From NCBI GenBank assembly GCA_937995675.1, contig CALKJE010000072.1, positions 1 to 41,138 of the forward strand: a stretch of DNA of 41,138 nucleotides, given 5' to 3'. Position numbers and translations under genes: made by a program. The notes beneath the pieces are model-generated. The model had not been told where the DNA came from. It searched no databases and saw only the letters and a list, made by a program, of their open reading frames with translations. This document shows positions 3,531 through 35,827 of this stretch, in pieces. The number at the start of each line of letters is the position of its first letter. Positions within the stretch are counted from its first letter, which is position 1. The stretch is from an uncultured Saprospiraceae bacterium. GTDB lineage: Bacteria > Bacteroidota > Bacteroidia > Chitinophagales > Saprospiraceae.

Positions 3531-5242
3531 TTATTCGTCGCTTTTTCATTTTGTTATTAACCATGAGTCTGCTTGCAGGCGCTACCCTTTCTTTGTCTGC
3601 TCAGATACGACCTTCAGAGGATCAGGTAGAAACGGAGAAAATCTTTATTGATGCTTCCCGTGAAAAGGTATTAGGTAACTATGAAAACGCGGCCTATTTA
3701 TTTAAAGAAGTCCTAAAGCGAGATAAGCGCAACCACGCTGCAGCCTATGAGCTAGCGCGATTATACGATGTACTTGATAATGTAGACAAAGCGATGGCCA
3801 GTATAAAAATGGCTATCGCCGGAGACCAGCAGAATCCTTGGTATCAGATGTTTTTGGCAGATCTATTTGACCGTAAGGGTAAATATAAAGATGGAGCCAA
3901 AATTTTTGAAAAATTAGTCAGCGATGCTCCCTACAATGAATACTATTATATCAAATGGGCATTTCTTTTAATGAAAGCCAAACAGCCAGAAAAATCTATC
4001 GAAGTCTACTCTATGTTAGAAAATCGGATTGGTATTTCTGAAGAAATCTCTCGCAAAAAACAGGCACTCTATCTAGGAATTGGACAACCTGCCAAAGCAA
4101 TTGAGACTTACCAACTATTAATTATTTCTGATCCTTATAATCTAGAATATCATCATTTGCTAGCTTCTTTGTATAAACAATTAGGAGACGAAGAAAATGC
4201 TGCTAAGGTATACCAAGATATCTTAGAAATTGATCCCAATGATGCACAAGCGAGTATCGCTTTGGCCGATCGAAAAAAAGTAGAAGGAGATGATGTCAGT
4301 TATCTAAATAGCCTACAGCCAGTATTTGCGAAGTCAGACGTAGATATTGATCTAAAAATAAAAGAGATTCTTCCTTACATTCGTCAAGTAGTAGATACGC
4401 CTAATGAACCTATCATGAACGCTACGCTACAATTAGCTAGCATTCTAGAAGAACAGCATCCAGACGAAGCAAAAGCTTATTCAGTTTCTGGTGATTTACT
4501 TTACTATTCGGGACGAAAAAGACAGGCGCTAAAAAAATATTTAAAAGCACGTTCTTTAAATAATACTATTTATAGTATTTACGAACAAATCATGTATATC
4601 AATTTGGAGACGAATAGCTATGATACGCTATTAACGATTTCAAATGAAGCAATTGATTTATTTCCTAATCAAGCGGGAGCATATTATTTTAATGGAGTCG
4701 CTTTAGATTTCAATCAAAAAGATCAAGCAGCCATCAGTTCTTATCAACAAGCATTGTTAATGGCTCGTAAAAATCCACGGTTACAATTTGACTTATATGC
4801 TCGGCTCGGTGGACTGTATCATCGGATCGGAAAGCATACTTTGTCTGACACTAACATGGACAAAGCTTTACAACTTAATCCAAAAGATTTTAATCTACTT
4901 AATAATTATAGTTTTTATCTAGCTGAACGAGGTGTTCAATTAGAAAAGGCAAAAAAAATGTCTGCACTCGCTAATGAGCTACGCCCTAATCAAGGACATT
5001 TTCAAGATACATACGGTTGGATTTTATATCAGATGAAAGAATATGAAAGCGCTCGTGAATGGCTAACCAAAGCGATTGATAATGGCGGAGATTCTAATCC
5101 TGGTATCCTAGAACACTACGGTGACATTCTTTTTCAAATCGGAAAAACGGAAGCAGCCATTATTGAATGGCAAAAAGCCTTAGAGAAAAAAGGAGGAAAA
5201 GATGAAGAACTAGAAGAAAAAATCCGTAGTCGTCAGTTATAA
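3527..5242 (+). CDS. secreted TPR-repeat protein
   Basis: ATGA overlap with the upstream gene. Signal-peptide-like N-terminus (LLLTMSLLAGATLSLSAQ). Repeated A..Y/L...G....A 34-aa TPR-like units throughout. Confidence 0.7.
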   Translation: MIIRRFFILLLTMSLLAGATLSLSAQIRPSEDQVETEKIFIDASREKVLGNYENAAYLFKEVLKRDKRNHAAAYELARLYDVLDNVDKAMASIKMAIAGDQQNPWYQMFLADLFDRKGKYKDGAKIFEKLVSDAPYNEYYYIKWAFLLMKAKQPEKSIEVYSMLENRIGISEEISRKKQALYLGIGQPAKAIETYQLLIISDPYNLEYHHLLASLYKQLGDEENAAKVYQDILEIDPNDAQASIALADRKKVEGDDVSYLNSLQPVFAKSDVDIDLKIKEILPYIRQVVDTPNEPIMNATLQLASILEEQHPDEAKAYSVSGDLLYYSGRKRQALKKYLKARSLNNTIYSIYEQIMYINLETNSYDTLLTISNEAIDLFPNQAGAYYFNGVALDFNQKDQAAISSYQQALLMARKNPRLQFDLYARLGGLYHRIGKHTLSDTNMDKALQLNPKDFNLLNNYSFYLAERGVQLEKAKKMSALANELRPNQGHFQDTYGWILYQMKEYESAREWLTKAIDNGGDSNPGILEHYGDILFQIGKTEAAIIEWQKALEKKGGKDEELEEKIRSRQL

Positions 5243-15841: not shown

Positions 15842-16375
15842 ATGAGTAACAAATTATCTTTAGCGATTATTTTATTAATTCCGTTTTATCTTAGCTCTTG
15901 TCTAAACGACAATCCCAATATAAACGATCAAGGGGAAGACGAACTCAAAACCTTAGAGATGTCAACTCCAATTAATCGAAATGAAATCGTCTTTACTGAT
16001 ACCATGTATGTGCCCATTTACTCTGATATTTATATAGATGCCACTAATTTAAAAAGTCTACTGGCTGCAACCTTAAGTATTCGAAATACCAGTTTTACCG
16101 ACTCCTTATTTATTTCTTTAATCGATTATTATAATACAAATGGTGATTTAGTTCGCAAATATATTGACCGACCAATCAGTTTACCACCAATGGCCTCCAT
16201 TAATTATGTAGTAGAAAGAGAAGATGATACCGGAGGATCTGGAGCTAACTTTATTGTGGCACTGGAAGCAAAAAACAAAAACATCAAACCTATAATCCAA
16301 GCGATCATGATTGGTCAAAACGGCAACAAAGGGTTCTCTTTCACTAGTGAAGCATATTCTCTAAAAAATAATTAA
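15842..16375 (+). CDS. lipoprotein, DUF3124-like
   Basis: Lipobox LSSC at the N-terminus. MYVPIYSDIY and ATLSIRNTS motifs match my recollection of DUF3124. Confidence 0.55.
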   Translation: MSNKLSLAIILLIPFYLSSCLNDNPNINDQGEDELKTLEMSTPINRNEIVFTDTMYVPIYSDIYIDATNLKSLLAATLSIRNTSFTDSLFISLIDYYNTNGDLVRKYIDRPISLPPMASINYVVEREDDTGGSGANFIVALEAKNKNIKPIIQAIMIGQNGNKGFSFTSEAYSLKNN

Positions 16376-16465
16376 CACCAACTGAACATAGGTAATACAA
16401 GATCGTTATAGTATTAAAATCAAAATATACATATTTTTAATTAAAAAATATATAAATCAAAACTT

Positions 16466-16633
16466 ATGTTACGTTACGCAGTCAATTTTCTAATTATTGC
16501 CATTGTGGCAGGGATACTTGGATTCAGTGGCATCGCAGGAGGTGCAGCCTCTATTGCTCAAATGCTATTCTACGTCTTTCTTATCTTACTAATAATATCT
16601 ATTGTAAAACACCTACTGACTAAAACTGCTTAG
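16466..16633 (+). CDS. small membrane protein, DUF1328/UPF0391-like (not in the ORF track)
   Basis: Hand translation: [55 protein letters not shown] (55 aa). Two TM helices and the GFxGIAG motif typical of this family. Followed by a terminator. Confidence 0.75.
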
Positions 16634-16759: not shown

Positions 16760-16798
16760 AAAAAAAAGGAACCGAGAGATTTTTAATCTTTCGATTCC
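16760..16798 (-). terminator. rho-independent terminator after the sigma-factor gene
   Basis: On the minus strand, ggaatcgaaagat...atctctcggttcc followed by T8. Confidence 0.7.
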
Positions 16799-16837
16799 AG
16801 TTCATAGGATTTTATTGATATTTTTTTTTGCTAAAAA

Positions 16838-17362
16838 CTATGCAGCTTTCAGAGGATTGATGTCATATCTACTAATAACCTTCGCGGATAATTTTTTACG
16901 AGCATAAAAAATCCGGCTTTTTATTGTGCCCATTGGTAAGTCCATTTTTTCGGCAATTTCATTATAATGATATCCTTCTGTATACATTTTGAAAGGTATG
17001 GCATATTTATCATCAAGATCATTGACCATTCCTCTCAACTCTTTCAGCAAAATTATTTTTTCTCCGTTCATTTCTGTACTTGTATTTCCAGGTAGGAATG
17101 ATAGATCTTCAATTGGCTTGATCACTGCGTTTTTAGTCTTTGCTCTTCGGTAATGATTGATGTAAGAATTGTACATAATTGTGGTGACCCATGCTTTAAA
17201 GTTTGTCCCTTCTTTGAAACGATCTCTATTGGCAAAACTGCGCATCATCGTCTCTTGCATTAAATCTTTTGCATTTTCTTGATTACGTGTTAATTTCATA
17301 GAAAAGCCAATTAGTAAAGATTTTATTTTATTTATTTCAGCATTAAAGATGGCGGTTGTCAT
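16838..17362 (-). CDS. ECF-type sigma-70 family RNA polymerase sigma factor
   Basis: 174 aa. Region 2 (AKDLMQETMMRSF...FKAWVTTIMYNSYINHYR) and region 4 HTH (YNEIAEKMDLPMGTIKSRIFYARKKL). Confidence 0.85.
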   Translation of the reverse strand: MTTAIFNAEINKIKSLLIGFSMKLTRNQENAKDLMQETMMRSFANRDRFKEGTNFKAWVTTIMYNSYINHYRRAKTKNAVIKPIEDLSFLPGNTSTEMNGEKIILLKELRGMVNDLDDKYAIPFKMYTEGYHYNEIAEKMDLPMGTIKSRIFYARKKLSAKVISRYDINPLKAA

Positions 17363-17429
17363 AATATTTATTTTTGATTTTGGTAAAAGTATAAGTGTCG
17401 TAAGAAATTATTTTGATACATAGCTAATG

Positions 17430-17846
17430 CTAAGCAGCTTTGGGTCTGGAAAGGCTGATGGTAAGTGCTTCGAAATGTCGACTGATAAAGGAAGCATAAG
17501 ACTTTGCTACTTCAAAGTGCATACAATTTAGGAGGTCTACCTCCTGAACAAAATCATCCTCCTGTTCTTTATTAATGGTGCCTGCTGCTATTTGCTCGAT
17601 CATCCGATTTTTCAGATCTTCAGCAATATTAGAGAGCTTCGCTTGTTTGGTTAAATACAACTCAGCTTTTTCTCTAATGGATACTCTCTGGTTTACTTTG
17701 CTGATTAAAAATAATTGGCGATAGCTCTTCTCCATTTTGATTTCATAATGAGCTACTGCTTTAATCAGATTGACAATTACGGGAAACATCTTTCCTTTTC
17801 CAGTCTCTCTAGTCGTTTTCGGTTGAAATGCAATTGCGTTTGTCAT
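17430..17846 (-). CDS. hypothetical soluble helical protein, first gene of the sigma-factor unit
   Basis: Trimmed to MTNAIAFQPK (ATG 17844-17846). 138 aa with no TM segment and no recognisable family. 67 nt upstream of the sigma gene on the same strand. Confidence 0.55.
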   Translation of the reverse strand: MTNAIAFQPKTTRETGKGKMFPVIVNLIKAVAHYEIKMEKSYRQLFLISKVNQRVSIREKAELYLTKQAKLSNIAEDLKNRMIEQIAAGTINKEQEDDFVQEVDLLNCMHFEVAKSYASFISRHFEALTISLSRPKAA

Positions 17847-17927
17847 AATTCGTATTTTTAAATTTGATTGAAGTGTGAAAAGCACCAATAAATATTTGTA
17901 TTCACCTCTTCACACACTCTTTGTATT

Positions 17928-17942
17928 TCAAACCGCGTGCCA
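17928..17942 (-). promoter_or_regulatory. candidate sigma-54 (-24/-12) promoter
   Basis: The minus strand reads TGGCACG-CGGT-TTGA. The -24 element and spacing are exact; the -12 GC is GA. It lies 82 nt upstream of the 17846 start and is divergent from the sigma-54 activator gene. Confidence 0.55.
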
Positions 17943-17970
17943 ACTTCATAAATCACTGTAAATCAAATAC

Positions 17971-18032
17971 TTATGATAATTATTCAGAAAATTATTTTAT
18001 GATATTTCAGAAAAATGATGATATTTAAGAAA
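17971..18032. promoter_or_regulatory. three direct repeats, possible activator binding sites
   Basis: TTATGATAATTATTCAGAAAA, TTATGATATTTCAGAAAAA and TGATGATATTTAAGAAA lie in the divergent intergenic region. Confidence 0.35.
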
Positions 18033-18065
18033 TAAGAATTATCTTTACGATCTATTTTAAAATAA

Positions 18066-20567
18066 ATGAAAGAAAAATTTAATTCTACCTTAAAATTGTT
18101 GGTTAAAACGGCCAGCTTATCTCCCAATGGCGTGTTGTGGTTGAATAAGGAAGGACAAATTCTGGCTGTTAACAATTCCCTTGCTACGCAATTAGGTTAT
18201 ACCTTATCTGATTTTGTGCCTACCACTATTTTTGAGGTCAACCCTTCCACCTCATTACTATCCTGGAAGCGGCTTTGGAAAAAATTGGTGGAAGATGGCC
18301 AGTCCACCTTTGATACCGAACAAATCACTGCTGACGATTCTATTTATCCAGTTACCATGCGGACTATGTTGCTTGAGGTAGAAGATCAATTCGTCTGTAT
18401 GGCCTTGGTAGAAAATCTAATGACGACCAACCGTTTTAAGGATTTATTGGAGATGACTGCACAAGTTGCAGGAGTTGGCGCCTACGAATACGACCTGGTC
18501 CAAGATGAACTAATTATCACAGATGAGTTTTTCCGACTCATGGATATTCCTAAAAGAAAGAAGGTAACGATTGAAGATACCAGACCAATTTTTCGGAGTA
18601 GAATTGCAAAGGAGGATCTTCCATTATATTTAAAAAACCTTGAATTTGCCATCAAAAAAGGAAAACCAGCAGAACAAGAGTTATCTTATCTCATCAATGG
18701 AAAATACGAGACCTTTAATTTTAAAATCATTCCAACCCAATTAGAAGATCAGACGATCAAAATTCATGGAACGATCCAAAACCTTGGTAAAATTGCTGAA
18801 CGGACTGACGAAATGCATTTTATGAAATTTTGTATCGAACACGCTCGGGATATGATCCTATGGGTAAATGAAGCTGATCAGAAAATTGCTTATGTGAATA
18901 AAAAATTGTGTAAAACACTTAATTATACTAGCTCAGAACTGATTGGAGAACATTACTCCATTCTAGTTAACCAAGACGAACGAACCGTCAGCTGGGACGA
19001 TTTTGATGAACAGATAGTCGAAGAAGGAGAGGTCGATGTAGAAATTAATTTTTTATCTAAACAAGGGAAGATCATTCCTGTCTCTACCTCTACAGACCGA
19101 CTGGACTTTAGAGGCAAAAAAATCAATTGTACCTTTGCCAGAAGTCTATCAAAAAAGAGAAAAAGAGACGAACTGATCAAGATGGCCAAGCATAGTCTAG
19201 ATCAATCAACCGATATTATTTTTTGGCTCAGGTCGGATGCTAGTTTCAAATACTTCAATGACGCTTTTGTAAAAAAATCAGGCTACACGCGCAAGCAAAT
19301 AGAAAAGATGACTATTCTAGATTTCTTTCCTGATACGACTGTAGAAGATTTTGAGGCAGGATGGGAAAAATTACAACAGGGAGAAACCCTAAGTAGTCAG
19401 GGAAGAAAGATGGTCTTAAAAAACAAAAACCACATCATCACAGAAATCACCGTCAACCTCGTAAAAATAGAAGGTAAGGAATATTCCACCACCGTACTGA
19501 GAGATATTACAAACCGTCAAGAAAAGGAGGACAAACTGCAAACATACCTTCAGGAAATTGAGCGGCTCAAAGCCAACGCGGAAGCAGCAAATATTATCTT
19601 AAAAGAAGAAATAGAACTAGAAAGTAACTTTAGCAATATTATCACTCGTGATCCTAACTATAAAAAGGTGATGAGACAAATTGAACAAGTTGCCGACACA
19701 GATGCAACGGTTCTGATTTTAGGGGAAACAGGTACCGGCAAAGAGCTCTTGGCCCGTGCAGTACATCAGCTGAGTGATCGTGCGGAATTCCCGCTGGTAA
19801 AAGTCAACTGTGGTGCACTCCCAGAAAACTTAATAGAATCTGAACTATTTGGTCATGAAAAAGGAGCATTTACCGGAGCACATCAACAAAAAATTGGTAA
19901 ATTTGAACGTGCAGAAAAAGGAACTATTTTTCTAGATGAGATTGGAGAATTACCGCTGGACTTGCAAACACAATTACTTCGAGTACTACAGGAAGGAGAA
20001 ATTGAGCGAGTCGGAGGATCAAAAACTATCCACTTGGACGTACGGATTATTGCAGCCACCAACAGAAATTTAGAAGAACAAATCGATCTTGGAAAATTCA
20101 GAGAAGATTTATACTATCGATTAAATGTTTTCCCAATTTATAATATTCCTCTACGGGAAAGAAGAGAAGACATCAAAATTTTAATCAAACATTTTACCGA
20201 TAAATACAGTAAAAAATTAAATAAAGAAATATCCGAAATTGCTCCAAGTGGAATGAACAAATTACTATCCTATAACTTTCCAGGAAATGTAAGAGAACTC
20301 GAAAATATTATTGAGCGTTCTGTTATTCTTACTAAAGGAAAAGTATTGATGATCGATCCAGCATTAACAAAAGTGAAAAAATCTACCAATGCTAAGAAAA
20401 AATTTAATACAATGGAAGAAATGCAGAAAGAACATATCATAGAAGCATTACGCAGATGTAAAGGAAAAGTGAGTGGACAAAATGGTGCAGCTGCTTTGCT
20501 GGACATGAACGATAAAACGTTAACTTCAAGAATGAAAAAATTGAAAATCGATAAAACTGATTTTTGA
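18066..20567 (+). CDS. sigma-54-dependent transcriptional activator with multiple N-terminal PAS domains
   Basis: 833 aa. ~520 aa of PAS-like repeats, then AAA+ with Walker A GETGTGKE, the [15 protein letters not shown] (GAFTGA) loop and Walker [10 protein letters not shown]-terminal Fis-type HTH. No receiver domain. Confidence 0.9.
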
Positions 20568-20618: not shown

Positions 20619-20975
20619 TTGCCTGATAATCAAAATTATATATCTCTCTCTAACGAAGCTTTTGTTAAAAAAGTGATTGCCGAAAAACAGCCCTCTGTCC
20701 TACTTTTCAGTGTCTCTTGGTCTGGAAATGCAGAGATTATGAATAGTATGATGGAACGGATCAGCAAAGAATTTAACAACCATCAGGTTCATTTCTATAA
20801 AGTAGATATTGAGGAAGAGCCAAGTATCGCTGAATTTTTCAATATCTATAATGTCCCCACTATTCTAATGGTTAAAGAAGGAGAAGTAATTGATCTTGTA
20901 AAAGGTTTTTTACCTGCCTCAAAAATTAGAAAAAAGGTAGTAGAACTCTTTGAATTAAAACAAAATCGCGCCTAA
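20619..20975 (+). CDS. thioredoxin-fold protein lacking the CxxC active site
   Basis: Trx-like layout (VLLFSVSW-SGNA-...YKVDIEE...YNVPTILMVKEGE). WSGNA (20718-20732) sits where WCGPC is expected. TTG start at 20619; there is no in-frame ATG near the N-terminus. Confidence 0.7.
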   Translation: MPDNQNYISLSNEAFVKKVIAEKQPSVLLFSVSWSGNAEIMNSMMERISKEFNNHQVHFYKVDIEEEPSIAEFFNIYNVPTILMVKEGEVIDLVKGFLPASKIRKKVVELFELKQNRA

Positions 20976-21105: not shown

Positions 21106-21648
21106 ATGAATTCTGCTAAAATAGCTGCTCTAAAAGTAATGATTCTGGAAGATCAACAACCAGATCAAATATTAGTAAAAAGGCAAGTGCTCAAATATGA
21201 GCCAAACAGCGTATTTCTAATCGCCGATAGTAAAAAGACCTTTTTAGATAAGATTGACTGGTTTTTACCAGACCTTATACTAGCCGATTACAACTTACCC
21301 GATTACACTGGTCTGGATGCCTTGATGTACATCAAAGAAAAAAAGCCATTTGTCCCCTTTGTTTTCGTAACAGGAGGCTTGCACAAATCCGATCCGGTAG
21401 CAGATGTGGTACTTGGACTAGCAGATGGGTTCATTTTGAAAGATGACCTCTCAACCTTGCACCAGCAACTAAAATCAATCATGGAAAAAAATGCTGAAAA
21501 AGTTAACATGCAGAAGGAGTTAATAAAGGTTCAGAACCAACAGCGGTTAAAAATTATGAAGGCAACTGTTCTATTAAAAGAATCCGGTGATTTTTCTAAA
21601 AAAGATGAACTGTTCAAACTCTTAAATGAACTAAAAGATCCATCCTGA
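21106..21648 (+). CDS. receiver-domain response regulator with a C-terminal coiled-coil tail
   Basis: VMILEDQQ, LILADYNLPDYTG (acceptor Asp), FVFVTGG, ILKDD. A ~50-aa helical tail and no DNA-binding domain. Confidence 0.75.
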   Translation: MNSAKIAALKVMILEDQQPDQILVKRQVLKYEPNSVFLIADSKKTFLDKIDWFLPDLILADYNLPDYTGLDALMYIKEKKPFVPFVFVTGGLHKSDPVADVVLGLADGFILKDDLSTLHQQLKSIMEKNAEKVNMQKELIKVQNQQRLKIMKATVLLKESGDFSKKDELFKLLNELKDPS

Positions 21649-21672: not shown

Positions 21673-22875
21673 ATGATCCCCCCTCCTATTCCAGAGAACG
21701 AAGAAGAAAGATTGTCTGCACTACAGACGTACAACATCATGGACTCTCTTCCTGAAAAGGATTACGATAATTTAACTAAGATCGCGTCAGAAATCTGCCA
21801 AGTACCCGTTGCCCTTATTACCTTTATGGGACGAGAGCGACAGTGGTTCAAATCTAAGGTTGGGGTAGACTTATCTGAAAACCAAAGAAATTTTACTTTT
21901 TGCGCTCATGGTATGATTGATACCGAGGAACCACTCGTTGTAAATGATGCCACCAAAGATCCTCGCTTTGTTGGTAATCCACTAGTAACTGGACCGTTTC
22001 AAGTTCGGTTTTATGCAGGAGTTCAATTGGTGGATAAAGCAGGGTTTCCGCTAGGTAGTATATGCGTTTTAGATGTTAAAAAAAATGAACTCAACCAAGG
22101 TCAATTAGAAACCTTGAAGATTTTAGCACAACAAGTTATTCGGTTACTTGAGTTACGTAAAACAATCACAGATTTAGAAATAAGTAAAGAAAATTTACTC
22201 CGGACCAATAAACAACTTCAGGAATATGACTACGTCATATCTCATGATCTCAAAGCACCACTCCGCAATATGAAACATTTAGCGGAAGCGATCAACGAAA
22301 TTTATGAGGACAAATTAGATGAAAAAGGAAAAAAGTATCTTCAACTTATTGACGAAACAGCAACGGATGCCATCTCCTATGTTACGGGAATATTAAATTA
22401 TTCCCAAGCAACCCATTATATTGATGTACTAAAAGAAAAAATTGAATTTGACAATTTTCTTAAAACCATAATTAGACAACAGACAATTCCAGACCACATT
22501 ACAATTTCTATTCCGGATCAACTCCCTGTCATTGAAGGTTCTAAAGCAATCTTAAGACAGATCTTTAGCAATCTGATCAACAATGCCATTAAATATCATG
22601 ACAAAAAAGAAGGATGGGTAAAAATAAATCACACGGAAAATAAGAGTCAACATATTTTTCAGGTAAGCGATAATGGGTGTGGCATTCCAAAAGATAAATT
22701 AGGGAGTATTTTTTCGCTTTTTTATATGGTTAACAAAGCTGATGCTAAAGATAAGAAAAGTTCAGGTGTTGGTCTTTCTATTGTCAAAAACCTCATCACA
22801 GAAATGGGAGGAAATATAAAAGTAGATTCCACCTTAGGAATAGGTACGACATTCAGCTTTTCCTTTCCAAAATAA
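21673..22875 (+). CDS. GAF-domain sensor histidine kinase
   Basis: N-terminal PENEEERLSALQTYNIMDS...VALITFM...RFYAG pattern typical of GAF kinases. H-box VISHDLKAPLRNM. HATPase motifs NLINNAIKY, DNGCGI, GVGLSI. Confidence 0.85.
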   Translation: MIPPPIPENEEERLSALQTYNIMDSLPEKDYDNLTKIASEICQVPVALITFMGRERQWFKSKVGVDLSENQRNFTFCAHGMIDTEEPLVVNDATKDPRFVGNPLVTGPFQVRFYAGVQLVDKAGFPLGSICVLDVKKNELNQGQLETLKILAQQVIRLLELRKTITDLEISKENLLRTNKQLQEYDYVISHDLKAPLRNMKHLAEAINEIYEDKLDEKGKKYLQLIDETATDAISYVTGILNYSQATHYIDVLKEKIEFDNFLKTIIRQQTIPDHITISIPDQLPVIEGSKAILRQIFSNLINNAIKYHDKKEGWVKINHTENKSQHIFQVSDNGCGIPKDKLGSIFSLFYMVNKADAKDKKSSGVGLSIVKNLITEMGGNIKVDSTLGIGTTFSFSFPK

Positions 22876-24929: not shown

Positions 24930-27900
24930 TTATCGTAAGCTAAGCAATTCTCTCAACTCGTCATTATCGTAATTTCCAATCCATTTCTCTCCATTGGCAA
25001 CGGTTAAGTTAGCCAGCTCTTTTTTTGATTGGAGCAACTCATTTATTTTTTCCTCAAAAGTTTGTTGAGTAATAAAACGATGGACCATGACATTTCGTTT
25101 TTGTCCAATCCGATAAGCACGATCAGTTGCTTGTGCTTCTGCAGCCGGATTCCACCATAAATCATAATGGATCACATTGCTGGCCTGCGTCAGATTCAAT
25201 CCTGTTCCTCCAGCTTTTAAAGAAAGAATCATCACCCGAGTAGAACGGTTATTTTGAAAATCATCTACCATCGCATCTCTCCCTTTTCGGTTGATACCAC
25301 CATGTAAAAACGATGCAGACAAACCAAAATTATCAGCCAATAATTCTTGCAACAAAGTACCCATCTGTTGGTATTGTGTAAAGATCAAAGTCTTTTCTCC
25401 GTTGTCCAAAATCTGTTGTAACAACTGAAATAACAACATCGTCTTACCTGATAGATTCGCCGCTTTATCTCCTTTTTTCAAATATTGATAAGGATGATTA
25501 CAAATTTGTTTAAGTGCGGTAATCAGCATCAACACCAATCCTTTTCTTTCTGCACCTTCTGCGGTTTCTACTCGTTTCAATGTTTTGTCTACTACATTTT
25601 GATAGATCGCGGCTTGCTCAGGAGTTAGCTGACAATACTGATCTTGTTCTATTTTTTCAGGTAAATCTTTAATAATAGATTTATCGGATTTTACCCGACG
25701 CATAATAAACGGTCCCGTAATTTTTTTAAATTTTTCCAACTTCACTAAATCACGATCTGCTTCGATAGGTTTTGCGTATTCGTCTTTAAATTTTTTCAAG
25801 GTTCCGAGATATCCTTTATTGGCAAAATCAAAAACACTCCAGTATTCACTCATTCGATTTTCTACTGGTGTTCCACTCATTGCTATTTTAATTGGAACCT
25901 TAATTTTCTTAATCGCTTTAGTTTGTGCGGTCGCTGGATTCTTAATATTCTGCGCTTCGTCAATCACCATAATCAACCAATGGTATCGTTGCAGTTTGGC
26001 TACTTCTCCACGTGCCACGCCGTAAGTTGTCAAAAGTACATCCGCCTCTTCAATCGGTGCAAGTTTTCGATTAGCACCGTGGTAGATATGCGTGATTAAT
26101 TCTGGCCCAAACTTTTTAATTTCTTTATCCCAATTGGTCAATAAAGTGGTCGGCACCACCACCAATGCTTTTTGCTCATCCAGCCTACCCTCTTCTTTCA
26201 ATTTTAGTAAAGTCGTAATCACTTGCAATGTTTTACCAAGCCCCATATCATCGGCGAGCAAACTACCAAATCCCAGTCTCGTGTTTTTATATAACCATTC
26301 ATAACCTTTTTGTTGATAAGGTCGCAGCGTTGCTTCCAAACTGATCGGTGGCTCTATGGTTTCTGACTTAAGCAACTCATCCATCAGTGCTCGTAACTCT
26401 GGCGTCAATTCTATACCCGCCCCTTTATACTCATCTGCTAAAGCGATTTGTAAAAGTTCGTGTCCGCTTAATTCCGGAGGATTTTCTAATGCTTGAATTA
26501 GCTTAGTAATTTCTGCTTCATCAAAAAAGAGATATTGATTTTGATAGCGAACGATTCCTTTAAAACGCCTGATCATTTTTAAAAACTCCTCTCTCGAAAT
26601 CGTGGTATCTCCTAACGCTACTCGCCAGTCAAAATCTAGGAGTTCATCTAAATTAACCAGTGACTTTTTCTTAACCACTCCTGAATTTTCTGCAGAGACC
26701 TTCATGGATAATTGCGGCTTGAGAATTTTCCGCAAAGCTTTCGGCAAGACTACTTTAATTCCAAACAATCGAATGGTTGGTAATATTTTAAATAGGATAT
26801 CTACAAATTCTATTTCATCAAAAAGTAATGGAACTTTACCTTTTAATTTAACCAAGTCTCCTATTCCTGAAAAATATTCAGAGAGCATGGCGAGATCTCG
26901 CAGTGCATCCATTCGAATATCGGCGTACTGCTTTTTTTCTAATAATGCTTTAAGGCCAAAAACAGGTCTGGTCTTTTTTCGTTTGTCTTCAAAAGCAACT
27001 TCCACAGCAAACCCTTCTTCGGAATCATCTACTTTTATAACTGGAACAAAATCTTTCTCAATGATATAAAATTTATTTAACCATAATTGAATCGCAATTG
27101 GATAGTCCTTGATTTCGTAGTCATTGAACGATTCTGATTTTTGATTAAAAAATAATTGCACCACTTCTATTGGCCAAAGTCGATCTTTGACTTTAGCATT
27201 TTTAGTCACTAAACCTGTTAGAAAAATACTTGTTAAAGCGGTAAAAAAATCAGCAGCAATCGGTTGTTTTATTTTTGTTCTAGCTTTATAGAATAGTATA
27301 TTTTCAGGAACAAGTGCTTCCACCAAATCATGGAGGTTTTTCACAATAGGATTTAATAGTGCAGGAATCCAACGAATGATATACTGTTCTTTTTCATCTA
27401 CCAAAAGCTGTGGAATAATGGCTCCTTTTTTCGCCAATTGCTTGGCATAGACCCAAGCTATCCACAACCCACGTAATCCCGGCGCGTACTGTTGGACACG
27501 AAGAAAAGACAAGGTATCTAACCAATTTATTAAATCCTCTATTTTTCCAAAATTAAATAGGACCTCACCCTTTTTATCGCGAAAGCTAACATCCAAAAAC
27601 GATCCTTTTTCAGAAAGGATAATTTCTAAATCTTCAATCGAATCTTTTTGAATATCGAGCGCAGTTGAAGGTGTTTCAGAGGTCGTACTTTTTTGTAAAT
27701 TCTTCGTTAACTGATCATAATTTGCAGATAATATTTTTTTAAAATTACCTGCCGGAAAGAAAACAGGTTGATCAGAAAGAATGGCCATCAGATCTTCCTT
27801 TAGCGAAGGAATGACAGAAAAATCAATTTGGTCCAAACTTAATCTGGGTTGTTTCCTAGTTCGAGTCTCTTCTGTCAAATCTTCCCAAAGTCGGGACAGT

Positions 27901-28448
27901 GAAAGGATACGAATGTCTTGGTGTTCTTGGGTTGTATAACCTGCTTTTCTAAGCGCTTCGAACAAATCAAATTTGTGTAATTCAAAAACCAGAAACGGAT
28001 TTTGATCGATCTCATTAGCAGTAAGATAGAGCACTGCAGCCATGTGTTTACAAGGAACTGCCCAATCGGGACAAGAGCAACTACCTTCGAGGTCATTCCA
28101 AGAATCAGGAAAAAGTGCGACGCCTTTTCTAGCACAAAGTTCCTTCAGTTCTGGTGGTAGTTGTCTATTAAGTAGTGCCGACAAATGCATTGGATGCTCA
28201 ATGACTGCTTCTACGATTTTTGCTTTTTCTTTATTTGAAAAAGGTGGAATGGTAAAGGAGACTTTATAAGGATGATATTGACTACCTTGAACATTAGCAG
28301 AGATTTCATTGCCTGCAATTTCGATATCACTAGCCAATCCTTTATTTGCATAGGTACGACCACGAGGCAAGCGGTTAGAAAAATCAATTCGGTTTAACGA
28401 ATTCAGCCATTGCTTTCCCCACCAAGTATTTCCGTAAGATTTTCTCAT
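24930..28448 (-). CDS. SNF2-family helicase with an N-terminal SWIM zinc finger
   Basis: 1172 aa. SWIM CSCPDWAVPCKHMAAV. SNF2 motifs LRPYQQKGYEWL, LADDMGLGKTLQ, DEAQNIKN, then helicase-C (LSLKAGGTGLNLT, WWNPAAEAQATDRAYRIGQ). Confidence 0.9.
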   Translation of the reverse strand: MRKSYGNTWWGKQWLNSLNRIDFSNRLPRGRTYANKGLASDIEIAGNEISANVQGSQYHPYKVSFTIPPFSNKEKAKIVEAVIEHPMHLSALLNRQLPPELKELCARKGVALFPDSWNDLEGSCSCPDWAVPCKHMAAVLYLTANEIDQNPFLVFELHKFDLFEALRKAGYTTQEHQDIRILSLSRLWEDLTEETRTRKQPRLSLDQIDFSVIPSLKEDLMAILSDQPVFFPAGNFKKILSANYDQLTKNLQKSTTSETPSTALDIQKDSIEDLEIILSEKGSFLDVSFRDKKGEVLFNFGKIEDLINWLDTLSFLRVQQYAPGLRGLWIAWVYAKQLAKKGAIIPQLLVDEKEQYIIRWIPALLNPIVKNLHDLVEALVPENILFYKARTKIKQPIAADFFTALTSIFLTGLVTKNAKVKDRLWPIEVVQLFFNQKSESFNDYEIKDYPIAIQLWLNKFYIIEKDFVPVIKVDDSEEGFAVEVAFEDKRKKTRPVFGLKALLEKKQYADIRMDALRDLAMLSEYFSGIGDLVKLKGKVPLLFDEIEFVDILFKILPTIRLFGIKVVLPKALRKILKPQLSMKVSAENSGVVKKKSLVNLDELLDFDWRVALGDTTISREEFLKMIRRFKGIVRYQNQYLFFDEAEITKLIQALENPPELSGHELLQIALADEYKGAGIELTPELRALMDELLKSETIEPPISLEATLRPYQQKGYEWLYKNTRLGFGSLLADDMGLGKTLQVITTLLKLKEEGRLDEQKALVVVPTTLLTNWDKEIKKFGPELITHIYHGANRKLAPIEEADVLLTTYGVARGEVAKLQRYHWLIMVIDEAQNIKNPATAQTKAIKKIKVPIKIAMSGTPVENRMSEYWSVFDFANKGYLGTLKKFKDEYAKPIEADRDLVKLEKFKKITGPFIMRRVKSDKSIIKDLPEKIEQDQYCQLTPEQAAIYQNVVDKTLKRVETAEGAERKGLVLMLITALKQICNHPYQYLKKGDKAANLSGKTMLLFQLLQQILDNGEKTLIFTQYQQMGTLLQELLADNFGLSASFLHGGINRKGRDAMVDDFQNNRSTRVMILSLKAGGTGLNLTQASNVIHYDLWWNPAAEAQATDRAYRIGQKRNVMVHRFITQQTFEEKINELLQSKKELANLTVANGEKWIGNYDNDELRELLSLR

Positions 28449-28487: not shown

Positions 28488-29009
28488 TTACCTTTTTTTC
28501 TTCTTTTTCTTATTTCGCTTTTGCCAAAATTTCCAATTGATTTTTTTCTTCTTTTTCTTAATAAGAATAAAACGGAGACTGATTCCAGTTTGATGATAAA
28601 TGCTATTGCGTCCACCAGACAAATTGATGGCTGGTTTATAATCCCAAGACAAAACCGTATTCTTCATCGCGAATTCTAATCCACCAATAAAAGTGACACC
28701 ATAAGGATTATCGAATCCTTCTCTATTATCAATCCAACCGATGTGGGGACCAACTCCTACATAATAATTGAATCGTCTCGAAAGAATTTTTCGATGATTT
28801 TCAAATAAAAGCGTCAAAGCAGATTCATTGGCTTTGGGATGAAAAGTCAAAATACCTTCGATCGTATTCTGGCCCCAAAGCACTTGCTGGACGGATAGTC
28901 CAAAGGGACTTCCGAGTCGTAATCCTGCAGCAGTTCGATAGCGTTGTGCCGACAGTGAAGTAGTCCAAAATAGACCAATCAAGAAAATGAAAATGATATT
29001 TTTATTCAT
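28488..29009 (-). CDS. small outer-membrane beta-barrel-like protein with a polylysine C-terminal tail
   Basis: Signal peptide MNKNIIFIFLIGLFWTTSLSAQ and alternating beta-strand patterns. A barrel-like terminal strand GISLRF is followed by ILIKKKKKKINWKFWQKRNKKKKKKR. Confidence 0.55.
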   Translation of the reverse strand: MNKNIIFIFLIGLFWTTSLSAQRYRTAAGLRLGSPFGLSVQQVLWGQNTIEGILTFHPKANESALTLLFENHRKILSRRFNYYVGVGPHIGWIDNREGFDNPYGVTFIGGLEFAMKNTVLSWDYKPAINLSGGRNSIYHQTGISLRFILIKKKKKKINWKFWQKRNKKKKKKR

Positions 29010-34579: not shown

Positions 34580-35827
34580 TTGGAAAACAATCTATTACTC
34601 GACGTTGAAACTTATGCTGTTAACTTCATTACCCGTAATGTTCCAAAAGATTATGCCTTTCACGATCTGCAACATACTATTATTGTTGTAGAGGCTGCCC
34701 ACAAAATTGGGAAGGCGATGAACCTTAATGAAGACGATCTGGAAATACTACAAATCGCCGCTTGGTTTCATGATATGGGCTATGATAAAGGAAAAGAAGG
34801 CCATGAAGAAAGAGGTTGTGAATATGCTGCAAACTTTTTGAAGCCTTTAAATTATCCAGCTGATAAATTAGAAAAGATCCAAAAATGTATCCGCGCGACC
34901 CACCTTAATCATACACCACAAACAGACTTAGAAAGAATCATCTGTGATGCAGACCTCAGTCATCTTGGTCGGAGAAACTATTGGGATCGTTGTCAACGTG
35001 TTAGACAAGAAATTGCTATTACACGAGATACGGTAATGACGGATGAAGAATGGGTAAGTTTCGAACTTGGCTTTATGCAGGCGCACTCTTTCAATACGCA
35101 AATTGCACAAGAATTATACGGTGCACGTAAAAATAAACATATCCAAAAACTTGAGCGTCGACAAAAAAAGTATACCAAACAATCAAATCCTGACACTCCG
35201 AATAATTTGCCAGTCCGCGCTAAAAAAAATAAAAAGAAAAAGAAACCTTCTTATGCAGATCTTGCGAGTAAGAATAATTCTGGCAATATCAACCTAAAAG
35301 AAATCAACCTAGGACGAGGAGTAGAGACGATGTATCGAACTACCTATCGAACGCATATTAACCTTAGTTCTATTGCAGATAATAAAGCGAATATCATGCT
35401 TAGTATCAATGCTATTATTGTCTCTATTACGCTTTCAACCCTTGTCCCTAAATTTGAGGACATTCCAAATTTAGTCATCCCAACGGTGGTCCTACTATTG
35501 GTTTGTTTAGTCGCTATTATCTTTGCCACCCTTTCTACCCGACCCAAAATTACGGAAGGTCGATTTACTCGAAAGAACATCGAAGAACGAAATGCTAATT
35601 TACTTTTCTTTGGTAATTTCTATAATATGAGTCTCGATGATTATCATTGGGGAATGTTGGAAATGATTAAGGATGAGGATTTCTTGTATAGTTCAATGAC
35701 TCGCGATCTTTATTATTTAGGAATCGTATTGGCAAAAAAGTATCGTTACCTAAGTTACTGCTACGCTGTATTTATGTATGGTTTAATTCTGGCGGTCATT
35801 ACTTTCGCGATTGTTTTTATTGCTTAG
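34580..35827 (+). CDS. HD-domain phosphohydrolase fused to a C-terminal two-helix membrane domain (DUF5706/PycTM-like)
   Basis: HD signature FHDLQHT...AAWFHDMGY...CDADLSHLG, then a K-rich linker (KKNKKKKKP). Next come GVETMYRTTYRTHINLSSIADNKANIML and two TM helices. TTG start: it is the first start-type codon after in-frame stops at 34523 and 34526. Confidence 0.7.
   Translation: MENNLLLDVETYAVNFITRNVPKDYAFHDLQHTIIVVEAAHKIGKAMNLNEDDLEILQIAAWFHDMGYDKGKEGHEERGCEYAANFLKPLNYPADKLEKIQKCIRATHLNHTPQTDLERIICDADLSHLGRRNYWDRCQRVRQEIAITRDTVMTDEEWVSFELGFMQAHSFNTQIAQELYGARKNKHIQKLERRQKKYTKQSNPDTPNNLPVRAKKNKKKKKPSYADLASKNNSGNINLKEINLGRGVETMYRTTYRTHINLSSIADNKANIMLSINAIIVSITLSTLVPKFEDIPNLVIPTVVLLLVCLVAIIFATLSTRPKITEGRFTRKNIEERNANLLFFGNFYNMSLDDYHWGMLEMIKDEDFLYSSMTRDLYYLGIVLAKKYRYLSYCYAVFMYGLILAVITFAIVFIA

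Follow-up and report, generated by a model that had tools for sequence, protein, structure and literature searches.

What switches on the sigma factor of extracytoplasmic function (ECF) type encoded in a 41,138-nucleotide stretch of DNA from an uncultured Saprospiraceae bacterium (GenBank assembly GCA_937995675.1, contig CALKJE010000072.1; the whole stretch is called the window below)? An earlier sequence-only reading, made without database searches, had proposed a sigma-factor cascade: a sigma-54-type promoter drives a gene for a 138-aa protein of unknown family and the ECF sigma gene behind it, and a divergently encoded activator fires that promoter when its PAS domains sense a signal. Our analysis supports this proposal, in that a sigma-54 promoter under a divergent PAS activator very probably drives the ECF sigma gene. 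The evidence that carries it is an invariant promoter box, the co-occurrence of this box with the activator and with one clade of ECF sigma factors, and an enhancer layout held in fixed register.

The predicted promoter occupies positions 17927-17942 of the minus strand, where it reads TGGCACG (-24), CGGT and TTGAA (-12), or TGGCACGCGGTTTGAA in full from 17942 to 17927. Its -24 heptamer matches at 7/7 positions, with GG at -24/-25 inside TGGCAC and the exact 4-nt gap to the -12 element that marks a sigma-54 promoter; the -12 element is TTGA, not TTGC. The sequence-only reading had placed this box correctly, and the distances it gave are confirmed: from the A of TTGA to the small gene's ATG (17846) it is 82 nt, 67 nt separate that gene from the sigma gene, and the T of TGGCAC lies 124 nt (about 120 in the first estimate) from the ATG of the divergent activator gene (18066). 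Counted from the GG at 17941/17940 by the -24 numbering rule, transcription is predicted to start near 17916 +/- 2, leaving a predicted 5' untranslated region (UTR) of about 70 nt (17847-17916, minus strand). By eye the box had seemed the sole such promoter match, and a pattern scan agrees: TGGCACGNNNNTTGCW at up to one mismatch has a single match in the whole window, with 0.12 expected from shuffles. This statistic is modest and suggestive at most, and so it is conservation that carries the case for a promoter.

Relatives were fetched as metagenomic loci, 101 in all, which are designated here by L numbers. For a census of the sigma clade, its alignment was used to fetch 80 metagenomic loci, which were scored with local hidden Markov models (HMMs) and regular expressions. 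The box was sought as [TC]GGCA[CT][GA]-N4-T[TC][GC] on the correct strand and no more than 1.1 kb upstream of the sigma gene; loci were made non-redundant, and clade membership was set at a sigma HMM score of at least 245 bits. Above this threshold the box stands upstream of the sigma gene in 23 of 25 loci, compared with 5 of 38 among lower-scoring, more distant ECFs and a background of 0.026 per 1.1 kb in the same census loci. Each of the 10 loci encoding a homologue of the 138-aa protein has the box too, at identities as low as about 23%. The comparison of orthologous intergenic regions that the sequence-only reading had proposed as a check has thus been run, and the box is kept. When the intergenic DNA of seven Saprospiraceae loci is aligned, AAGTTGGCACG-NNN-TTTGAA is invariant, and variation is confined to the flanks and the three bases of the spacer. 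Distant loci (L012, L014, L016 and L017/18; small-protein identity 22-34%) keep TTGGCACG-N3-TTTGAAT or -TTTCGTA in intergenic DNA that is otherwise unalignable.

The genes around the box travel with it. Close relatives carry the same module (L001, L002, L005 and L008-L011), a sigma gene of the 174-aa type follows the small gene in every recovered locus, and the divergent PAS activator is adjacent in 7/7 loci whose contig covers that side. In the census the activator is divergent and adjacent in 13 of 25 loci, many of which are short contigs. The small gene lies between box and sigma gene in 11 of the 25 clade loci and is absent from the other 14; in L019, L020, L033, L044, L045, L047 and L049 the box stands 60-130 nt directly 5' of the sigma gene. 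On this comparison the conserved core is a predicted sigma-54 promoter leading to an ECF sigma gene, and the small protein would be accessory, because about half of the clade has the promoter directly before the sigma gene with no small gene in between. Two further arrangements were seen. At L029 (4118-4500) the box is 384 nt 5' of the sigma gene and is followed by a short open reading frame starting MTKPPV..., which seems to be what is left of the small gene after truncation. At the edge of the clade, L057/L058 hold two tandem paralogous ECF sigma genes (3714-4286 and 4435-5007), with sigma-54-type boxes TGGCACGGTTATTGAA and TGGCACGATTATTGAG located 802 nt and 81 nt upstream of the start of the second gene, so that one box lies upstream of each.

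The -12 position is where this promoter departs from the classical form, and the departure is shared. Among the 23 clade promoters the -12 pentamers are TTGAA (11), TTGAC (3), TTGCA (2), TTGTA (2), TTGGA (2), TTGAT (1), TTGGC (1) and TTCAA (1); counted by base, -12 is A in 15, G in 3, C in 2 and T in 2, and one promoter has C for the -13 G, which is otherwise nearly invariant across the clade. The window conforms, in that the GC at -13/-12 keeps its G and has A for C. The sequence-only reading had counted the GA as a mismatch; the substitution is real, but it is the norm of this promoter family and probably not a weakness. Judged from these alignments, A at -12 is a consistent property of the family and an apparently tolerated departure. 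From work on -12 mutants, a change at this position could tune the stability of the closed complex or basal leakiness. The orthologous promoters of L037 and L042 show the full canonical TGGCACG-N4-TTGCA, which connects the TTGA form with genuine sigma-54 promoters. There is also precedent in the phylum: in Flavobacterium psychrophilum, start-site mapping defined the sigma-54 promoters (motif SM4), with that of remF confirmed by mutagenesis, and these mapped promoters are often without the C, having TAGT or TTGT at -12 (PMC9723704). The supplementary table of the same paper gives TTGGCACGATTTTAGTTGTG for remF and TTGGCACGGTAGTTGTA for a chaperone region, again with no C at -12 (PMC9723704).

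The gene facing the promoter (18066-20567, plus strand) encodes an enhancer-binding activator of 833 aa. A domain scan finds Sigma54_activat (PF00158, 1.6e-75), AAA_lid_14 and HTH_8, and places the AAA+ domain at residues 525-691 and the helix-turn-helix (HTH) at 782-826; a Walker A motif lies at residues 553-560 and GAFTGA at 600-605. The protein thus has the full set expected of its class, an AAA+ sigma-54 domain, GAFTGA, Walker motifs and a Fis-type HTH, and the scan finds no Response_reg domain. The sequence-only reading had named the GAFTGA loop, Walker A motif, Fis-type HTH and missing receiver, all of which are borne out; its roughly 520 aa of PAS repeats stand in part, with three PAS domains confirmed (residues 19-104, 253-346 and 378-485) and residues 126-250 matching nothing. 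By its domains the activator belongs to the one-component, sensor-domain subclass and not to the response-regulator subclass, and with the receiver domain missing, the PAS domains are the probable point of entry for the signal. A LOV-type PAS is not supported, as no NCRFL motif was seen by eye in the activator sequence.

In the textbook layout of enhancer-dependent promoters a bending site stands between tandem upstream sites and the -24/-12 elements, and the DNA between the two divergent genes follows this order. Across 41 distinct promoter regions, anchored on TGGCAC without gaps, three elements keep a fixed register: two 14-bp dyads and a box resembling the site of integration host factor (IHF). 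In the window the distal dyad, upstream activator site (UAS)-1, is TTCTTAAATATCATC (18017-18031, minus strand), centered near -107, and the proximal UAS-2 is TTCTGAAATATCATA (17998-18012, minus strand), centered near -88; a repeat finder also reports the pair as two 19-nt direct repeats. The dyads have the form (C/GA)TGAAATATCA(G/TC), and their start-to-start spacing of 19 bp is kept in distant loci. A perfect palindrome, GATGAAATTTCATC, occurs in L016, L028 and L040, and in L019, L044, L049 and L053, where the activator is more divergent, both half-sites have changed in concert to CTTAAATATAAG, as would be expected if a site and the protein that binds it had co-evolved. These dyads are candidate activator-binding sites. 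A third, degenerate copy, TTCTGAATAATTATCA (17974-17989, minus strand), is not conserved in relatives and is absent from the 41-promoter consensus.

Between the upstream sites and the promoter lies the IHF-like box, centered near -41 (17944-17967, minus strand). Across the clade its consensus reads TGATTATCAR-N4-TTA; the window has a degenerate copy, TTTGATTTACAGTGATTTA, and many other copies match the IHF consensus WATCAANNNNTTR, for example those of L001, L009, L014, L016 and L019. From its position and conservation we infer that IHF/HU or another bending protein binds here. The upstream region of a sigma-54 promoter is thus represented by a divergent GAFTGA activator, two conserved dyads, to which activator binding is predicted, and an IHF-like box.

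The sigma gene (16838-17362, minus strand) encodes 174 aa with regions 2 and 4 only; the domain scan gives Sigma70_r2 at 4e-14 and Sigma70_r4_2 at 1.4e-9, and TIGR02937 reaches 78.8 bits, where the cut-off is 42.9, which agrees with the ECF type first read from the sequence. No named ECF equivalog or subfamily cut-off is reached among the best 25 of 84 NCBIfam matches, the nearest models falling far below theirs (SigY 88 vs 194; PG0214 family 86 vs 130). The sigma factor is far better conserved than the small protein, with 48-91% identity among about 100 clusters.

What this sigma factor may act on is suggested by a second motif. A candidate ECF-type output promoter, TGAACATAGGT-N10-CGTTATA (16383-16410, plus strand), identified by motif and conservation, lies directly after the stop codon of a DUF3124 gene and about 60 nt 5' of a gene for a 55-aa DUF1328 protein (16466-16633), and has the GAAC...CGT look of ECF promoters. 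Its core, TGAAC-N16-CGTT, has a single match in the window (0.31 expected), is found once per related locus and always ahead of a gene start, and is conserved in six species with the spacer free. In L012 it precedes a PerM-DUF2254-Pmp3 operon just 3' of the sigma gene. With T or A allowed at the last position (TGAAC-N16-CGT[TA]) there are 24 matches, some of them near-duplicates, in 467 kb of clade loci vs 1 in 596 kb around other ECFs, an enrichment of about 30-fold. The genes downstream encode a Dps-type ferritin, an MscS channel, DUF1328 and DUF5670 proteins, an APP1-like phosphatase and lipoproteins, which points to a regulon of the stress or osmoprotection type.

In the window, the relatives and the census, the TGAAC-type motif never precedes the sigma operon, and the sigma factor therefore seems not to be positively autoregulated. 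An autoregulatory ECF promoter before the operon or in the 67-nt spacer had been a candidate; motif scans found none. The DUF3124 gene, which encodes a lipoprotein and adjoins the sigma gene (15842-16375, plus strand), may belong to the same regulon. It takes two arrangements beside the sigma gene, convergent in the window and co-directional in L016 (2373-2909), and in relatives a DUF3124 gene comes after a Usp gene and one for a 105-aa protein, with a TTGAACAT box common to the regions upstream of these two.

Whether one transcript covers both genes can be judged from the spacer and the ends. The 67-nt spacer (17363-17429, minus strand) is AT-rich, has no hairpin by eye and contains no TGAAC-N16-CGTT box; across loci it is likewise AT-rich, spans 60-177 nt and shows no conserved hairpin or promoter. 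Because it has neither terminator hairpin nor conserved promoter, the small gene and the sigma gene are probably co-transcribed. The terminator that had been placed after the sigma gene is real by folding, with a 13-bp stem followed by U8 (16762-16800, minus strand). A simple terminator scan missed it; the 101-nt stretch that contains it folds at a minimum free energy of -19 kcal/mol (z = -2.7), and the structure is kept in relatives with compensatory changes. Given the A-run on its opposite side, it may also serve the convergent DUF1328 gene. At the other end of the transcript, the 5' UTR may form a hairpin, GAGUGUGUGAA...UUCACACUUC, for which the consensus fold over six species is weak (-1.98 kcal/mol), with compensatory changes in 4 of 6 pairs.

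The first gene of the operon (17430-17846, minus strand) is an open reading frame for the 138-aa protein, and it was rightly described from the start as helical and of unknown family. Neither this protein nor its 23 relatives have a Pfam or NCBIfam match, apart from scattered chance matches of the relatives to Pfam. A word-indexed search of 5.8 billion proteins returned four close homologues, and an exhaustive profile search of 1.84 billion representatives returned 27 clusters. AlphaFold2, run on an alignment of 11 sequences, predicts a three-helix bundle (pLDDT 80.8) with residues 1-18 disordered and helices at 20-51, 55-88 and 93-132; the best-conserved stretch, E-x-D-L-L-N-x-M-H-F-x-V-x-K-x-Y-x-S-F, is in helix 3. 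The fold offers no functional clue because structure searches reach generic bundles only: Foldseek against the PDB found only helical bundles of generic or designed kind, with no match at E<=0.001, and the sequence profile against PDB chains found designed helical proteins only. The zinc-binding anti-sigma motif HxxxCxxC is absent, the one Cys is not conserved, there is no known anti-sigma fold among the 50 Foldseek PDB matches listed, and PspA_IM30 has no match in 23 family members at E<=5. An anti-sigma role is plausible but unproven. We tentatively read the protein as a co-synthesized, unstable antagonist of the sigma factor that would buffer or delay its activity, an assignment we would not quite back against all its alternatives taken together. 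That about half of the clade does without it would suit an optional modulator, whether of the sigma factor or of the activator.

The notion of instability comes from the protein ends. Nearly all members of the small-protein family end in -AA, -VA or -TA, the window copy in ...RPKAA (last codons 17430-17438). The window sigma factor ends in ...PLKAA (last codons 16838-16846), and 13 of 14 aligned clade members have a C-terminal A, commonly as L-x-A-A, RAA, MAA or RRA; some C-termini in the clade are RRA or LAS. In the cleaved anti-sigma RseA a C-terminal Ala-Ala is a ClpXP degron. By analogy, the Ala-Ala ends may make both products of the operon short-lived, as the C-terminal Ala-Ala of the ECF sigma factor AntA is likewise a ClpXP degron (PMC8999054).

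The input side of the module includes further neighbors. Just 3' of the activator gene lies a gene (20619-20975, plus strand) for a cysteine-free thioredoxin-fold protein (thioredoxin score 8e-16). WSGNA or WSGTA replaces WCGPC in 6/6 aligned copies, none of which has the CxxC; the window copy has no Cys at all and keeps the cis-Pro loop (VPT). Because the active-site cysteines are lost, the protein cannot be a redox enzyme. Its gene adjoins the activator in most loci (L001 2862-3215, L005 2834-3205, L012 149-502, L014 2365-2679, L017 2111-2428 and many census loci), and it may be a partner of the activator. Near the module the window also holds a receiver-only regulator (21106-21648) and a GAF histidine kinase (21673-22875), the latter a neighbor in L001, L005 and L019 as well. 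In L014 (1-2117) and L017 (1-1857) a bacteriophytochrome kinase (PAS_2-GAF-PHY-HisKA) comes directly after the thioredoxin-like gene, which hints at a light-related input. Any link from kinase to activator would be indirect, because the activator has no receiver domain.

The elements in the DNA, the register and conservation of these, and the domain make-up of the proteins are observations. The circuit we infer, from activator binding and start site through co-transcription to regulon, small-protein role and degron, would work as follows. With a signal arriving probably through the PAS domains, the activator would bind as dimers or higher oligomers at the two 14-bp dyads near -107 and -88, the DNA would be bent at the IHF-like box near -41, and the AAA+ domain would remodel sigma-54 RNA polymerase at TGGCACG-N4-TTGA by way of its GAFTGA loop. 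The transcript would start near 17916, cross the genes for the 138-aa protein and the ECF sigma factor, and end at the hairpin at 16762-16800. The newly made sigma factor would redirect RNA polymerase to TGAAC-N16-CGTT promoters ahead of small stress-type genes, with the DUF1328 gene as target in the window and Dps, MscS, PerM and DUF5670 genes in relatives. The three-helix 138-aa accessory, made together with the sigma factor, would most likely be a soluble antagonist that buffers or delays it.

Several points weigh against this cascade. The -12 C, strongly conserved in the classical consensus, is absent from the window promoter. At least one match to the box occurs in 10 of 100 shuffles, which makes the in-window statistic taken alone weak to modest, and with two mismatches or a shorter pattern the motif is not above chance in the window. 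Two clade members, L046 and L050, have no box. The sequence is present in DNA metagenome runs only and in no RNA run; rpoN, sought by its RpoN-box motif, was not found in the window or the 101 fetched loci; and a literature search on Saprospiraceae plus sigma-54 found nothing. The assignments of the dyads to the activator and of the IHF-like box to a bending protein draw solely on position and conservation, as does that of the TGAAC-CGTT promoters to this sigma factor, with proximity to its gene.

In one alternative the box would serve another regulator as its operator, or belong to a promoter for a housekeeping sigma factor, with the primary sigma transcribing the operon; strings resembling TAnnTTTA in the spacer before the sigma gene of two nearby species favor this, as do the missing -12 C, the want of an RNA run and the failure to find rpoN. 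Against it, the conserved bases fall at exactly the positions and spacing contacted by sigma-54 while the four spacer bases vary, a GAFTGA activator and an upstream layout of the enhancer type go along with the box, and two orthologous promoters show the full canonical consensus. A Bacteroidota -7 box overlapping the motif was considered and rejected because the positions required as TA vary; no TAnnTTTG lies over the motif, and the bases before TTTG are GCGG, GCCA, GTGG or GTCG. We regard this alternative as very improbable. Input set by partners, namely the thioredoxin-fold protein and/or the receiver-only regulator with its GAF kinase, in place of direct sensing by the PAS domains, is a better candidate, if still on the unlikely side. 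The thioredoxin-like gene follows the activator in most loci with both cysteines lost in 6/6 copies, and histidine kinases recur nearby (GAF type in the window, L001, L005 and L019; phytochrome type in L014 and L017). The activator nevertheless has no receiver to accept a phosphoryl group, the kinase type varies by locus and no kinase stands beside the module in others (L012), and three PAS domains are retained throughout. Such an input would in any case be compatible with the sigma-54 cascade, of which it alters the input step alone.

The remaining alternative concerns the small protein, which might act not on the sigma factor but on the AAA+ domain of the activator, as a negative-feedback partner that shuts the operon down. 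There are models for this: in the Psp system PspA, the all-helical first product of a sigma-54 operon, inhibits the divergently encoded activator PspF, and HrpV acts on HrpS as a negative partner. The topology here is like that of pspF and pspA, in that the activator is divergent and the sigma-54 operon begins with a gene for a helical protein; the small gene is never seen apart from the sigma-54 promoter (11/11 census loci), and the activator adjoins it wherever the contig reaches. Yet 0/23 family members match PspA_IM30 or any other Pfam domain, and no PspA is among the 50 Foldseek matches listed. Loci with activator and promoter and no small gene (L019, L039, L040, L042, L044 and L045) fit an optional partner of either protein and do not discriminate. 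We consider such feedback on the activator improbable, and keep the antagonist of the sigma factor as our tentative assignment.

To our knowledge, the synthesis of an ECF sigma factor under sigma-54 has one well-studied case, HrpL of plant-pathogenic Gammaproteobacteria. The closest systems in logic are HrpR/HrpS-sigma-54-HrpL (ECF32; Pseudomonas syringae) and HrpS-HrpL (Erwinia/Pantoea), which share with the present module a receiver-less activator and a sigma-54 promoter before an ECF gene. The module differs from them in phylum, in the PAS region of about 520 aa on its activator (HrpR/S have no sensory domain), in a sigma factor below all equivalog cut-offs with HrpL not among the best 25 models listed, in a putative regulon of small stress and membrane proteins instead of type III secretion, in TTGA at -12, and in an extra unannotated protein, predicted to be co-transcribed in about half of the clade. 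In gene topology the closest system is PspF with pspABCDE, which has the divergent activator and the helical first product; however, the 138-aa protein matches PspA neither in sequence nor in fold, a sensor domain is missing from PspF, and the Psp operon has no sigma gene. Neither Hrp nor Psp is related to the module in sequence. Sigma-54 and an activator also switch on a second sigma factor in Rrp2-RpoN-RpoS of Borrelia and in the sigma-54-dependent fliA of Vibrio and Pseudomonas flagella, but there the downstream sigma is RpoS or sigma-28 rather than an ECF, and the activators carry receiver domains.

Other parallels concern single features. HrpL is an ECF controlled at the level of synthesis and not positively autoregulated (PMC8999054; PMC7826278), and the operon described here likewise has no ECF-type box ahead of it. 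Sigma-AntA (ECF282, Streptomyces albus) also ends in Ala-Ala and is controlled by synthesis and proteolysis with no anti-sigma (PMC8999054); it belongs to an unrelated ECF group and phylum, and the degron proposed here follows from the C-terminal residues alone. The sigma-54 regulon of F. psychrophilum shares the Bacteroidota -24/-12 promoters, several without the -12 C, whereas its targets are chaperone, gliding and envelope genes, with no ECF sigma gene in the main text (PMC9723704).

Elsewhere in the window, proteins that carry sorting domains for type IX secretion agree with an origin in Bacteroidota, and three genes were recorded in passing. A 415-aa protein (34580-35827, plus strand) combines an HD domain with PycTM, the transmembrane effector module of Pycsar anti-phage systems, and no cyclase was noticed alongside. 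At 24930-28448 the minus strand encodes a large helicase of the SNF2 family, which has a SWIM zinc finger and DUF3670; just 5' of its gene and on the same strand is a 173-aa open reading frame (28488-29009) with no Pfam match.

A bolder extension would have the module act in Saprospiraceae as master switch for a response of the general-stress type. The sigma-54 activator, sensing through PAS domains, would control an ECF sigma factor with a Dps/MscS/DUF1328/DUF5670/PerM regulon, the 138-aa protein would represent a new class of soluble anti-sigma or anti-activator, and Ala-Ala ClpXP degrons on both products would shape a self-limiting pulse. We know of no general stress sigma factor described in Bacteroidota, and hold this extension to be rather unlikely as a whole.

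Specialists in transcription and ECF signaling should find the module moderately interesting. It yields testable parts, among them a well-delimited candidate site for the activator, an IHF-like box (such sites have had little study in this phylum), a family of promoters with A for C at -12, and a candidate ECF output motif tied to stress-type genes, together with two unannotated accessory proteins, one a predicted three-helix protein and the other a cysteine-free thioredoxin fold. The principle is not new: the same logic as that of Hrp would have been built independently in an uncultured family of Bacteroidota, and its enhancer architecture, complete and conserved to an unusual degree, is legible from metagenomes directly.

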